From IMG/VR virus record IMGVR_UViG_2585427739_000001: DNA of 14,248 nucleotides; one strand, given 5' to 3'. Both the position numbers and the translations under genes were made by a program. Position 1 is the first letter of the stretch. Each line of letters starts with the position of its first letter. The DNA is from a virus. Its lineage: Duplodnaviria; Heunggongvirae; Uroviricota; Caudoviricetes. Below the pieces are notes generated by a model. It saw only the letters and a program-made list of their open reading frames with translations. It searched no databases and had not been told where the DNA came from. Below, piece by piece: positions 1 to 12,070 of this stretch.

Positions 1-1130
<1,130 letters not shown>

Positions 1131-2936: not shown

Positions 2937-3363
2937 AAGCTGTGTGACGAAGTAACCACTCTTAACAGCATAACCAATTTTTTACGTACGTAAACCACTA
3001 AATGATATTTGCGAGAATGCTACCGAGTATTGAAAACACCACTACAAATACATAAGCAAATCTCAACAAATAACCAACAAATAATTTCCAGTGTTATTTT
3101 TAGCCAATTTAAATTGAACCTTCAAATTATAGAGCACTTATAAATAACAGCCGTTAATATAAATTGGCTAATAGATTTATTTTTATTCAGCCAAGAGCTA
3201 TGAATAGGATTCGATAGAAAAAAGTTCAGATAAAAATAGAGATCTACTTCACAAATCAAACGAGAAACCAAAACTTACATCTTGAAATAATCACATTGAT
3301 TAGATGAATATTTATCGCGCAGTGACATCATTTTTTAATAATAGTTCAAAAAAAGGGCTCACG

Positions 3364-4461
3364 ATGAAAAAATTAACAGTGGCAATTTCTGCTGTAGCTG
3401 CATCAGTACTGATGGCGATGTCTGCTCAGGCAGCTGAAATTTATAATAAAGACAGTAACAAGCTGGATCTGTACGGGAAAGTTAATGCTAAGCACTACTT
3501 CTCCTCTAATGATGCAGATGATGGTGATACTACTTATGCCCGTCTTGGCTTCAAAGGTGAAACCCAAATCAACGATCAACTGACTGGTTTCGGTCAGTGG
3601 GAATATGAATTCAAAGGCAACCGCGCTGAATCTCAAGGTTCCTCCAAAGATAAAACCCGTCTTGCCTTCGCTGGCCTGAAATTCGGTGACTACGGCTCCA
3701 TCGATTACGGCCGTAACTACGGTGTAGCATACGACATCGGTGCGTGGACTGACGTTCTGCCAGAATTCGGTGGTGACACTTGGACTCAAACCGACGTGTT
3801 CATGACTCAACGTGCAACTGGTGTTGCAACCTATCGTAACAACGACTTCTTTGGTCTGGTTGATGGTCTGAACTTTGCTGCTCAGTACCAAGGCAAAAAC
3901 GATCGTAGCGATTTCGATAACTACACTGAAGGTAACGGTGATGGCTTCGGTTTCTCTGCTACCTATGAATACGAAGGATTCGGTATCGGTGCAACTTATG
4001 CGAAATCTGATCGTACCGACACTCAAGTTAATGCAGGGAAAGTTCTTCCTGAAGTATTTGCTTCCGGTAAAAATGCAGAAGTTTGGGCCGCAGGTCTGAA
4101 ATATGACGCTAACAACATTTACCTGGCCACTACCTATTCTGAAACCCAGAATATGACTGTATTTGCTGATCACTTCGTTGCTAATAAAGCCCAAAACTTC
4201 GAAGCTGTTGCACAATATCAGTTCGATTTCGGTCTGCGTCCGTCCGTTGCTTACCTGCAATCTAAAGGTAAGGATCTTGGAGTATGGGGCGATCAGGACT
4301 TAGTCAAATATGTTGATGTAGGTGCAACCTATTACTTCAACAAAAATATGTCTACTTTCGTTGATTACAAAATCAACCTGCTTGACAAAAATGACTTCAC
4401 TAAAGCACTCGGTGTAAGCACTGATGACATCGTTGCTGTAGGTCTGGTTTACCAGTTCTAA
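3364..4461 (+). CDS. nmpC: Outer-membrane general porin, NmpC/Lc/OmpD family (prophage moron, apparently intact)
   Basis: 365 aa with signal peptide [23 protein letters not shown]|AEIYNKD, porin-typical beta-strand repeats and C-terminal ...VGLVYQF. Encoded between Q and S on the opposite strand, as in DLP12 and phage PA-2. The ORF-track start at 3304 is an upstream extension. Confidence 0.88.
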
Positions 4462-5260: not shown

Positions 5261-5619
5261 TCATTCCCCATTTCGGTGATGGTCAGTTCCAGCCTCCCAC
5301 CTTTGGTAACAGGCATCTTCACAACGCGGTAATCAACGACCTGAGCATCATCCAGCCAGAAACCTGCTTTAGTGAGTGCGTCAAAAGCGGCTTTTTGCAG
5401 ATTATCCAGGTCACGGCGACGGCGATCCGGCATGTGGCACTCAATGCGGATTTTCACAGGCATAGCCAGGCCGATATCCAGCATTGCGTTTTTAATGATT
5501 CGGGCGACGTTATCGCGGTATGCCTGCCCCTCTGCGCTGACGTGCGTGCGCCCGCGATTATGGCGGTAATAGCGATTATTGCTCGGAGGCCAGGGTAATG
5601 TGATGCTGTAGGTATTCAC
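5257..5619 (-). CDS. rusA: Holliday-junction resolvase RusA
   Basis: 120 aa [50 protein letters not shown]... matches RusA as recalled. Apparent GTG start overlapping the upstream TGA. Confidence 0.9.
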
Positions 5620-5744
5620 GCCTTAATAACCCCCTCTTTCAGCCAGATAACCTGTGTTCTCGCCATACCTTCCAGCGCGCATTCTTTTGCATATGCAGCA
5701 TCGACTTGCTTGGCATGCCCTTTACCGGCAATCTTCTGTATGCG
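5616..5744 (-). pseudogene. ybcO: 3' remnant of a ybcO-like nin-region gene (about 42 codons, no start codon, in-frame stop immediately upstream)
   Basis: Hand translation of the minus strand gives ...[42 protein letters not shown], resembling the C-terminus of DLP12 YbcO as I recall it. The frame is closed by TAG just upstream. Confidence 0.35.
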
Positions 5745-5825: not shown

Positions 5826-6173
5826 CTAAGCATTATTGGCCTCCTGCATCAGGAGAAAGACAATCATGGCGGCGCGGAGAGGTCTGGTATCAAATATTGG
5901 GCTTACGCCTTTTGCATCCACACACCATTCAGTTAACTGGTCTAAGATAGAAATCCTGTATTTCTCAATAATCGGCCATGAAGCGCTCGGATCATTGCAG
6001 TAGTCAGGCAAAGGGTTTAATGGCTCAAGACTTACATCGGCATTTCCGTAATACCATTTGTTGGTGTTATTCCCTGATGTTTCAGGCTTACATGCCCAAA
6101 GGCCTTTAAAAATTATGTCTCCTACCATTCGGTTAATTTCAAAATCACTTAACTGTGAATAATCCATTGTCAT
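5826..6173 (-). CDS. Hypothetical nin-region phage protein (about 115 aa)
   Basis: [55 protein letters not shown]... with GAGGA upstream; the ATG overlaps the upstream gene stop (ATGA). Family not recognised with certainty. Confidence 0.55.
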
Positions 6174-6346
6174 TTCCTCGCACGATGTCTTAGCCACCGG
6201 ATATCCCACAGGTGAGCCGTGTAGTTGAAGGTTTTTACGTCAGATTCTTTTGGGATTGGCTTGCGTTTATTTCTGGAGCGTTTCGTTGGAAGGTATTTGC
6301 AGTTTTCGCAGATTATGTCGGTGATGCTTCGTCGCTGTCGTCTCAT
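6170..6346 (-). CDS. ninE: Small basic Cys-containing nin-region protein (NinE-like, 58 aa)
   Basis: [58 protein letters not shown]; start ATG overlaps the methyltransferase stop (ATGA). The NinE assignment is from memory and tentative. Confidence 0.45.
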
Positions 6347-6870
6347 GCAGCCCTCCTGACGCCCTGCCCGATCGCCATCAATGCCGCTTTGGATACGGTA
6401 GTAAACATCCGTCGAGGACTGATGAACGGTCGCCAAATCAGCAGCATGGAGCCTTTGCTGTTTCCCTTCTTCTCCAGCCCTGTCGATGGTTCGATAAAAT
6501 TAATCCGTCCATCAGTGATAATACGAACTTCGTCAACACTCTCCAGAGCCTTGCTGAACCATCCGACAGACATATCCTCTGGCACAAGCATCACTACCGT
6601 CTGTCGCTGTTGTATACACTGCTCAGCGGCTTTTTCCACCCACGGCCTGATATTGCTGTACGGTGGGTTATTCCAGATTGCACCGTGGCTTACCCACTCA
6701 GAATTGAGCGCGTCGTCGTCCTCAGTTAGCCAGTGAGCGCACAGAGCATTTTTGTCGCTCGCTGCCGAATCCAGCCAGAATCCAAACTCAATATCCAGTG
6801 CATCAAAAAGCCAAAGCGGCGTTTGCCAGCAGTCCTTGTCGTGTGCTGGCGTATTTGATTTGATAGTCAT
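6343..6870 (-). CDS. Phage orphan DNA N6-adenine methyltransferase (phage Dam family)
   Basis: 175 aa [41 protein letters not shown]...IWNNPPYSN...: a DCWQTP N-terminal motif and an NPPY catalytic motif typical of phage N6-adenine methyltransferases. ATG overlaps the ninB stop. Confidence 0.75.
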
Positions 6871-7307
6871 GCAGCCCGATCTCCCCATCGCGCTTTCCAT
6901 TCGAGAGCTAGTCGCGCTTCGTCTGACCACTTAACGCCACGCTCTGTACCGAATGCCTGTATAAGCTCTAATAGCTCCGCAAATTCGCTTACACGCATCC
7001 TGCTGGTTGACTGACCTATTACCACAAAGCCATTCCCGGCAAGGTTAGGAACAACATCCTGCTGCTTTAATGCTGCGGTAAACACACACTTCCAGCTTTC
7101 TGCATCCAGCCAGCGACCATGCCATTCAACCTGACGAGAGACGTCACCTAAGCAGGCCCATAGCTTCCTGTTTTGGTCTAAGCTGCGGTTGCGTTCCTGA
7201 ATGGTTACTACGATTGGTTTGGTTGGGTCTGGAAGGATTTGCTGTACTGCGTGAATAGCGTTTTGCTGATGTGCTGGAGATCGAATTTCAAAGGTTAGTT
7301 TTTTCAT
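6867..7307 (-). CDS. ninB: NinB (Orf-family recombination mediator)
   Basis: 146 aa MKKLTFEIRSPAHQQNAIHAVQQILPDPTKPIVVTIQERNRSLDQNRKLWA... essentially identical to lambda NinB as recalled. Confidence 0.92.
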   Translation of the reverse strand: MKKLTFEIRSPAHQQNAIHAVQQILPDPTKPIVVTIQERNRSLDQNRKLWACLGDVSRQVEWHGRWLDAESWKCVFTAALKQQDVVPNLAGNGFVVIGQSTSRMRVSEFAELLELIQAFGTERGVKWSDEARLALEWKARWGDRAA

Positions 7308-7323: not shown

Positions 7324-7354
7324 AAATAAAAAGGCCTGCGATTACCAGCAGGCC
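7324..7354 (-). terminator. Intrinsic terminator between ren and ninB (lambda tR2 position)
   Basis: Stem ggcctgc / gcaggcc with an 8-nt loop, followed on the minus strand by a U-run (plus strand ataaaaa). Confidence 0.65.
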
Positions 7355-7380
7355 TGTTATTAGCTCAGTAATGTAGATGG

Positions 7381-10763: not shown

Positions 10764-11321
10764 TTGGCAAAAATAGATGATTATCAGCCAAGCCAAGTAG
10801 AAGTTGATAAAGTACTTTATTGTAAAAAAATAGTTAACTTTTCTGGCGTTAAATGGAAACAGAAACCAAGTCGCTCTGATATGTGGCTACAAGCTCATAT
10901 CATCCCCTTGGATGAGGATTGTATACCTATACAAGGGCTAAAGTTTGAACTGAAATGGAAACCAGATCAGGATTCAGAACCTGATGACCCGATTTCTTAC
11001 CCTAAAATAAATATTATTGCTTTCTATCATAACAAGAGGGTTTTCGCGGTAGATACCTATCACTTTGACAAACACACGAATAGTTACAAGGTCGATCATC
11101 CGAAGTACCAAGATATCATTTACGGTGCTCATTACCATGTATACTATGAAGAAGCTGGATACTATAGTGATAGAATAGCGTTTCCAATCGAAGATGACAT
11201 AAACCCAGATGACCTGGTAGGGTATTGGAATTACTTCTGTAAACATCTGAACATAACTTACTCTGGGAGAATACCTTTACCGCTTGAAGATGAGTCGGGG
11301 CAAATGGGGTTTGGAATATGA
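10764..11321 (+). CDS. Uncharacterised protein A (185 aa) in the rexA position; first gene of a two-gene cassette
   Basis: ORF immediately downstream of cI (39-bp gap, no terminator seen). Only available start is TTG at 10764 preceded by AGGGCGG; the next in-frame ATG is at codon 40. Acidic, Tyr/His-rich, no obvious transmembrane segment, visibly AT-rich. Confidence 0.6.
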   Translation: MAKIDDYQPSQVEVDKVLYCKKIVNFSGVKWKQKPSRSDMWLQAHIIPLDEDCIPIQGLKFELKWKPDQDSEPDDPISYPKINIIAFYHNKRVFAVDTYHFDKHTNSYKVDHPKYQDIIYGAHYHVYYEEAGYYSDRIAFPIEDDINPDDLVGYWNYFCKHLNITYSGRIPLPLEDESGQMGFGI

Positions 11322-12070
11322 TGTGCTCAACAGTGATCTCACAACTAGGTTTCGAATGCCATCCAATAGGCAAGACCTTGAGAATTATCAGTCCATTCAC
11401 TTACTGTGATGATGGAGAGCATGTCGGTGCCTTTATCCGTGAAGTCAATGGTAGGTATTTAGTTAGTGACAGATGCGATGCCTTAATGAATATGGAGGCA
11501 AGAGGGATCTCGCTTACCAAAAAACGACTTGATGAGATACGACAATTACTGCTTAAAGAAGGCGCAGAACTCAATGCTCGAGGAGAAATCATTGCTTGGG
11601 CAACAGAAAAGGATGTCGGTGCGATTACATCGAACATAATTAGAGCTGGTATACTCGCATCAACTTTGTCGTTAGACTGGTATCAGCCAGTTCAAGCTGA
11701 AAAGTTTGAAAGTATGGTTATTGATTATCTATATCACACAGAGCTTAGAGAGGCACTTTCTCTTCGTGAAAACGTATATGGCTTGAGTGGACATCAAATT
11801 ACCGTCCCTGTAACAATAAAAACCGACATACCTAAATACGTTTTTACATCAAGCGTGAAACACGGAGGAAGCTGGAATAGTGCTTACTCATTGCTTGGGA
11901 AACTAATTGATCTTAAAGCTTCAAGTGAGGAGTATAACAACAGATTTGTTGTTATAGACAGCGAAGCAATTGGTGATCAAATGCAACAACTCTCCTTACT
12001 CTTCCATGAATCAAGCCAAGTTCTACCATTCTCCAAAAGAGAGACTTGGATTAAGAGACTTGCAGCATAA
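11318..12070 (+). CDS. Uncharacterised protein B (250 aa) in the rexB position; second gene of the cassette
   Basis: ATG at 11318 overlaps the stop of protein A (ATGA), implying translational coupling. No recognisable family and no long hydrophobic helices; followed by an intrinsic terminator. Confidence 0.65.
   Translation: MMCSTVISQLGFECHPIGKTLRIISPFTYCDDGEHVGAFIREVNGRYLVSDRCDALMNMEARGISLTKKRLDEIRQLLLKEGAELNARGEIIAWATEKDVGAITSNIIRAGILASTLSLDWYQPVQAEKFESMVIDYLYHTELREALSLRENVYGLSGHQITVPVTIKTDIPKYVFTSSVKHGGSWNSAYSLLGKLIDLKASSEEYNNRFVVIDSEAIGDQMQQLSLLFHESSQVLPFSKRETWIKRLAA

Follow-up and report, generated by a model that had tools for sequence, protein, structure and literature searches.

The nin region of the lambdoid prophage considered here contains, between ninB and ninE, a gene for a small protein that resembles an adenine methyltransferase. 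Its presence raises two questions: which site does the enzyme modify, and what does the phage gain by it? E. coli hosts are already Dam+, and the selective benefit of the gene is therefore not obvious. Our answer, to which we assign a probability of about 0.88, is that it encodes an N6-adenine methyltransferase of the Pfam family PF05869, orthologous to M.EcoVT2Dam, which targets GATC, is expressed with the delayed-early genes and methylates progeny DNA. In the following, "the window" means the whole stretch of phage DNA that was analysed, 14,248 nucleotides in length.

The gene and its neighbours

The original prediction described an open reading frame for 175 amino acids with the motifs DCWQTP and NPPY and left the strand unstated. 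The reading frame is real, and the gene lies on the minus strand (Table 1). In the window sequence its ATG occupies 6870-6868 and its TGA 6345-6343, which leaves 175 codons plus the stop. The program that lists open reading frames had extended it to a version of 195 amino acids with a GTG start (to 6930). This version was rejected, because 25 of 25 homologs start at the ATG and RefSeq, in a prophage of 98.7% identity, annotates a CDS of 528 bp. The distance from the GGAG of the putative ribosome-binding site to the ATG is 10 nt. The encoded protein reads NNPPYS around motif IV and ends in RRAA.

Table 1. Positions of the methyltransferase gene, its motifs and adjoining elements in the window
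Feature	Positions	Strand	Basis or remarks
Methyltransferase CDS, 175 aa (M.EcoVT2Dam ortholog; PF05869/TIGR01712)	6343..6870	-	HMMs; 174/175 identity to orf32
Codons of D13-C-W-Q-T-P18, N-terminal conserved motif	6817..6834	-	Residues 13-18
Codons of N68-P-P-Y71, catalytic motif IV of N6-adenine methyltransferases	6658..6669	-	Residues 68-71
GGGGAG, Shine-Dalgarno-like, within the 3' end of ninB	6881..6886	-	Read from the sequence; putative function
ninB (orf), recombination mediator, 146 aa	6867..7307	-	Pfam NinB 1.2e-54; upstream gene, same operon
ATGA, ninB stop TGA (6869-6867) over methyltransferase start ATG	6867..6870	-	Sequence
ATGA, methyltransferase stop TGA over ninE start ATG (6346-6344)	6343..6346	-	Sequence
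ninE, 58 aa, downstream gene	6170..6346	-	Pfam NinE 7e-44, full length
Intrinsic-terminator-like hairpin between ren and ninB	7332..7355	-	8-bp stem with 6 GC pairs, followed by TTTTATTT (T-run)

On the minus strand the genes are arranged in the order cro, cII, O, P, ren, ninB, methyltransferase, ninE, ninX, a DUF1364 remnant, rusA, ylcG and Q. Beyond Q a porin gene, lysis genes and an IS5-like element complete this window of a lambdoid prophage. The methyltransferase gene is a member of the nin region: it sits between ninB and ninE, shares its strand with O, P, ren and Q, and overlaps both neighbours by an ATGA. Both overlaps, with ninB and with a NinE-like gene, had been correctly foreseen; Pfam confirms the identity of the two partners, and ninB is a 441-bp CDS in the RefSeq annotation of the 98.7% identical prophage. 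Within the methyltransferase gene, an AGGAGG precedes the ATG of ninE by 5 nt. Overlaps of this kind are typical of nin regions (PMC8022706). The overlapping stop and start codons suggest that ninB, methyltransferase and ninE are translated in a coupled fashion.

The hairpin between ren and ninB has the features of an intrinsic terminator, and by its position, together with the lambda gene order, we take it to be the equivalent of lambda tR2. A terminator of this type would make the expression of ninB, methyltransferase and ninE dependent on N-antitermination.

It had also been claimed that the gene occupies the position of lambda ninC/ninD. By the order of the lambda reference, which is NinB-NinC-NinD-NinE, this is true. 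A strict replacement of these two genes it is not. In Salmonella phage Oslo the same methyltransferase gene is followed by ninC, and the gene should hence be seen as a mosaic insert after ninB.

Other traces of rearrangement are seen nearby. According to the RefSeq annotation of the 98.7% identical prophage, a truncated DUF1364 pseudogene, which lacks its N-terminus, lies at about 5616-5705 on the minus strand between rusA and ninX; it marks a mosaic junction or a deletion scar within the nin region. Among database proteins, P0002 (233 aa, 41 member sequences) and P0024 are fusions of the methyltransferase with NinE. In P0002 the methyltransferase runs straight into NinE ('...GVRRGGMRRQRR...'), and the ATGA junction is gone. 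P0016 and P0113 are NinB-methyltransferase chimeras, in which an N-terminal part of NinB is joined in frame at or near a tripeptide, 'WLD', that occurs as 'GRWLDAESW' in NinB and as 'GFWLDSAAS' in the methyltransferase. All four may be real variants or artefacts of assembly or frameshifting.

Some features of the window lie outside the nin region. Between cI and N, i.e., at the position of lambda rexA/rexB, a cassette of two genes is found, 10764-11321 (+) and 11318-12070 (+). The product of the second matches protein B of the PADLOC candidate defence system PDC-M24 (5.8e-10) and Pfam DUF1828; for the product of the first, the match to PDC-M24 protein A is weak (4.8e-4) and that to Pfam DUF6978 falls below the cut-off. 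A defence moron carried by the prophage is one possible reading of this cassette. In H41, the closest E. coli prophage, its place is taken by one different 'hypothetical protein'. The space between Q and the lysis genes holds a gene for a Gram-negative porin (3304-4461, Pfam Porin_1 5.6e-157) on the plus strand, opposite to the nin genes; nmpC-like morons of this type are known from lambdoid phages. Directly beyond the Rz/lysozyme lysis genes lies an IS5-family DDE transposase (105-1121, minus strand; Pfam DDE_Tnp_1 1.9e-35, DUF772). The best-matching E. coli prophages lack this IS, and their matches to the window start at 1154-1813, which implies that the prophage in the window is IS-disrupted on its late-gene side.

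Family, fold and probable target site

The original prediction saw in the protein a phage Dam-family adenine methyltransferase and proposed an HMM search as a check. This search was run, and it bears out the assignment. Pfam PF05869, 'DNA N-6-adenine-methyltransferase (Dam)', is matched at 3.7e-65 with 219.1 bits (cut-off 28.1), residues 4-169 covering profile positions 1-167 of 169. The NCBIfam equivalog TIGR01712, 'phage N-6-adenine-methyltransferase', scores 265.6 bits (cut-off 97.05) over positions 1-165 of 165, and PHROG 111, 'DNA methyltransferase', is matched at 8e-88. Among 25 aligned homologs NPPY is invariant without exception (25/25), as are T17 and P18, while D13 and W15 are conserved to at least 90%. 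The protein thus has both the NPPY and the D-x-W-x-T-P of the family, and both align with their counterparts in T1 Dam and M.Phi93DAM. DCWQTP presumably corresponds to the 'x-T-P' motif X of the gamma-class amino-methyltransferases. HP1 Dam we also take to be a member of PF05869, to judge from the Pfam description and from the T1 record, which has the wording 'similar to phage HP2 dam protein'.

The gene is by no means a rarity. Identical DNA (100%) is found in ten records of phage collections, ev207, ev017, PhiR57_1 and PhiR63_2 among them, and DNA of at least 95% identity in 244 phage records, mostly of Stx-converting and other lambdoid phages. At the same threshold, the gene is found in about 29% of complete E. 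coli genomes (1566 of 5426), which have up to five copies each; there it is always annotated as 'phage N-6-adenine-methyltransferase' and always located between NinB and NinE. At the protein level the family has members in 2158 of 50,697 phage records, among them those of T1-like phages and of phages of Klebsiella, Vibrio, Lactococcus and Staphylococcus. It is, in other words, an ordinary, very common and routinely annotated gene of lambdoid prophages, which is present in most Stx phages and was already known.

The enzyme is an orphan, as had been surmised: none of the open reading frames of at least 90 amino acids in the 14.2-kb window, all of which could be assigned, encodes a restriction endonuclease, and the best PADLOC match is 'oMTase, orphan methyltransferase' (1.6e-19).

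An AlphaFold2 model was built from the alignment of 25 sequences (mean pLDDT 78, pTM 0.79). Lack of a methyltransferase fold had been named as a finding that would speak against the assignment; the predicted fold is that of a methyltransferase. More precisely, the model is a single domain with the class-I fold of SAM-dependent methyltransferases, closest to N6-adenine methyltransferases, and it displays no separate target-recognition domain. Foldseek finds viral models of phage 'DNA N-6-adenine-methyltransferase' proteins with TM-scores of up to 0.88. The solved structures that match are all much larger (243-751 aa). Only about 30 residues connect the first strand (residues 31-33, 'WLD') with the NPPY strand (64-67), and they are poorly predicted: confidence is low for the segment that links motif I to motif IV (37-63), with a pLDDT below 50 at residues 42-47. 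A search of all PDB sequences with phmmer and with the 25-sequence profile yielded chance matches only (E above 0.3), and no member of PF05869 appears to have a solved structure.

As to the target site, the original prediction called it unknown. This has to be revised. The protein is identical in 174 of 175 residues to orf32 of the Stx phage VT2-Sakai (NP_050531.1). In a six-frame scan of this 60.9-kb genome, orf32 was the only reading frame with a [DNS]PP[YFWH] motif, and it is also the sole annotated methyltransferase of the phage. The name 'M.EcoVT2Dam' can therefore only refer to orf32. Radlinska and Bujnicki reportedly assayed the cloned gene with methylation-sensitive restriction enzymes in 2001. 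GATC is given as the target of M.EcoVT2Dam in later papers that cite this work (Radlinska & Bujnicki 2001, as cited in PMC6602927, PMC7556043 and PMC7139368); two of them, PMC7556043 and PMC7139368, come from the Radlinska group itself. Small methyltransferases, when over-produced, may yield off-target results, as was cautioned in the case of M.EcoGV (PMC10810198). In lysogen methylomes no study separates an activity of the M.EcoVT2Dam type from that of host Dam (PMC6602927).

Tested distant relatives point to the same site. Dam-like GATC activity is credited to P1, VT-2 and T-even coliphages, with the purification from T1 (Scherzer 1987) as the reference given (PMC7139368). For M.Phi93DAM, SMRT sequencing of phage DNA revealed G6mATC, and digests of phage and plasmid DNA with DpnI and DpnII established the GATC specificity and the protection against DpnII (PMC4190342). 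Most likely, the methyltransferase of the window also modifies the adenine in GATC and acts on the site that host Dam uses. The target is not new: via the near-identical M.EcoVT2Dam it has been assigned since 2001.

The window itself contains 42 GATC sites against 53.6 ± 6.6 expected, i.e., neither significant avoidance nor enrichment. The sites are present and not avoided, which is no argument either way. One of them, at 6878-6881, falls inside the ribosome-binding spacer of the methyltransferase gene (GGAGATCGGG), just upstream of the ATG; a second one, at 6370-6373, lies near the 3' end of the gene, just upstream of the Shine-Dalgarno element of ninE. With 42 sites in 14 kb, both placements are probably due to chance.

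Expression and probable role in the phage cycle

The proposed course of events is as follows. Once the prophage is induced or a cell is infected, transcripts that start at pR and are antiterminated by N would extend past the tR2-like terminator into ninB, methyltransferase and ninE. This tightly packed unit would be translated, with coupling suggested by the overlaps. The enzyme would then transfer methyl groups from SAM to N6 of the GATC adenine on phage and on host DNA. Rapidly replicating phage DNA, with which the limited host Dam cannot keep pace, would thereby be brought to full GATC methylation. The packaged genomes should then resist restriction of the DpnII/MboI type, which cuts unmethylated GATC, independently of the Dam status of the host.

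Two observations fit the expected expression together with the delayed-early genes, which the original prediction had likewise assumed: the tR2-like terminator upstream of ninB and the behaviour of the corresponding gene of phage Phi24B. The product of the latter, CM2, is 100% identical to NP_050531.1, and qPCR groups the gene ('dam') with those linked to the lytic cycle (PMC3342100). As for the function, the virion DNA of lambda and P22 is undermethylated by host Dam (PMC8022706), and topping up the GATC methylation of the progeny is thus the most economical role. A physiological benefit in Dam+ E. coli may result from it. The anti-restriction effect has been demonstrated for M.Phi93DAM and may, by analogy, be shared by the lambdoid enzyme.

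Of course, an additional GATC methylase could also serve the lysogen, by supplementing host Dam for the stability of lysogeny or for the regulation of host and prophage genes. Host Dam is cited as being required for stable lysogeny by the Stx phage 933W, and the authors of the Phi24B study themselves considered that the phage Dam could supplement the host enzyme; its product was detected with a lysogen-culture antiserum (PMC3342100). However, the gene follows pR and a tR2-like terminator and should therefore be repressed in a lysogen. Its lytic-linked qPCR profile in Phi24B also argues against such a main role and fits a spontaneously induced subpopulation. Moreover, the methylomes of lysogens display no motif beyond the GATC of host Dam (PMC6602927). 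An epigenetic main role thus appears quite improbable. Still less credible is the idea that in vivo the protein does not really methylate GATC in DNA, its substrate being RNA or being set by a required partner subunit, e.g., NinB or NinE. A parallel does exist: M.EcoPA8orf6770P, together with its partner PNB-2, methylates 16S rRNA. Yet this enzyme differs in gene and family; it is the MT-A70-type product of gp5 next to int, has DPPW as its motif, is preceded by the gene of its wHTH partner PNB-2 and prefers 16S rRNA (PMC10810198). Members of PF05869, for their part, act as GATC DNA methylases in phages that do not have NinB and NinE as neighbours.

One might finally suspect an inactive remnant, given that the prophage carries the IS5-family transposase (105-1121) and the DUF1364 pseudogene remnant between rusA and ninX as signs of decay. 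The reading frame of the methyltransferase is, however, intact, all invariant residues of the family are present, and its DNA is the one found unchanged in the ten phage-collection records, so that we give this suspicion hardly any credence. A further extension of the picture, in which GATC is read in an unusual way (by a homodimer, or by the short conserved loops 37-63 and 121-140 as a minimal reader) and the gene is at the same time functionally linked to NinB/Orf, we hold, as a joint claim, to be very improbable. An obligatory partnership with NinB or NinE is argued against by the T1 and 936-type members of the family, which work without these neighbours, and the authors of the Orf-family paper expressly deny both homology and a link between NinB/Orf and a methyltransferase. 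If the conserved translational linkage to NinB were functional nevertheless, full GATC methylation of replicating or recombining phage DNA would leave MutH without the hemimethylated or unmethylated sites at which it nicks. Recombination intermediates would then be shielded from mismatch repair, and the homeologous exchange behind lambdoid mosaicism would be favoured.

Comparison with known systems

The enzyme, taken as a GATC methylase of progeny DNA, has to be distinguished from several others of similar name. M.EcoGV and M.EcoPA8orf6770P are also small, prophage-encoded, 'Dam-like' adenine methyltransferases and occur in some of the same Stx phages. The protein of the window is not of their MT-A70 type: it has NPPY, yields no MT-A70 match in Pfam and is encoded in the nin region. 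The prophage enzyme that was reported in NAR in 2023 to methylate 16S rRNA is accordingly not the product of the window gene; it is gp5, has DPPW, belongs to the MT-A70 family and is encoded near int. The two should not be confused, as the Stx-phage 'Dam-like' enzyme of MT-A70 type is an rRNA methyltransferase. Nor is the gene that of M.EcoMIV, the prophage methyltransferase known from the ST131 methylome, since M.EcoMIV carries PF02086.

The classical Dam enzymes of E. coli and T4 are, like DpnM, D12 N6-adenine methyltransferases of the alpha class (PF02086). They contain DPPY and a target-recognition domain inserted between motifs III and IV, and those of E. coli and T4 are about 100 residues longer than the protein of the window. 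The latter matched PF05869 only and not PF02086, and no Dam of the PDB was found by sequence or profile. The term 'Dam-type' is thus true only by specificity and by the name of the Pfam family; sequence comparison reveals no homology to E. coli or T4 Dam. The common GATC specificity of the phage and host enzymes is considered to be convergent (PMC7139368).

Within PF05869 the relatives differ mainly in size and genomic setting. M.Phi93DAM (Phi93_04) of the lactococcal 936-type phage phi93 has 140 amino acids, scores 117.5 bits and is 33% identical to the protein of the window. It is an orphan, too. It lacks the C-terminal stretch of about 35 residues, has NPPY as its only classical motif, and its gene is part of the packaging module, where it is flanked by the terminase genes. 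The anti-restriction benefit is direct there, because the Gram-positive hosts of this phage carry restriction-modification systems of the DpnII type. The Dam of coliphage T1 (ST20, 237 aa, 236.5 bits) is likewise 33% identical and has NPPY and D-x-W-x-T-P in common with the window protein. Its N-terminus is longer by about 45 residues, an insertion follows residue 109, and the phage is virulent, without a nin context for the gene.

The closest relative by far is M.EcoVT2Dam, the product of what is called 'dam' or the CM2 gene in Phi24B. It has the same length, the same position between ninB and ninE and the same overlapping stop and start codons. The sole substitution is at residue 51, alanine in VT2-Sakai and aspartate here; this column is variable among the 25 homologs and adjoins the segment of lowest confidence in the model. 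The phages themselves also differ: that of the window is a non-Stx lambdoid prophage with O and P of the lambda type, whereas VT2-Sakai has a DnaB-like P. By size, the family belongs to the smallest known DNA methyltransferases with sequence specificity. With it, phages of Dam+ hosts retain a second GATC methylase, which by sequence is not recognisably related to the Dam of their host.
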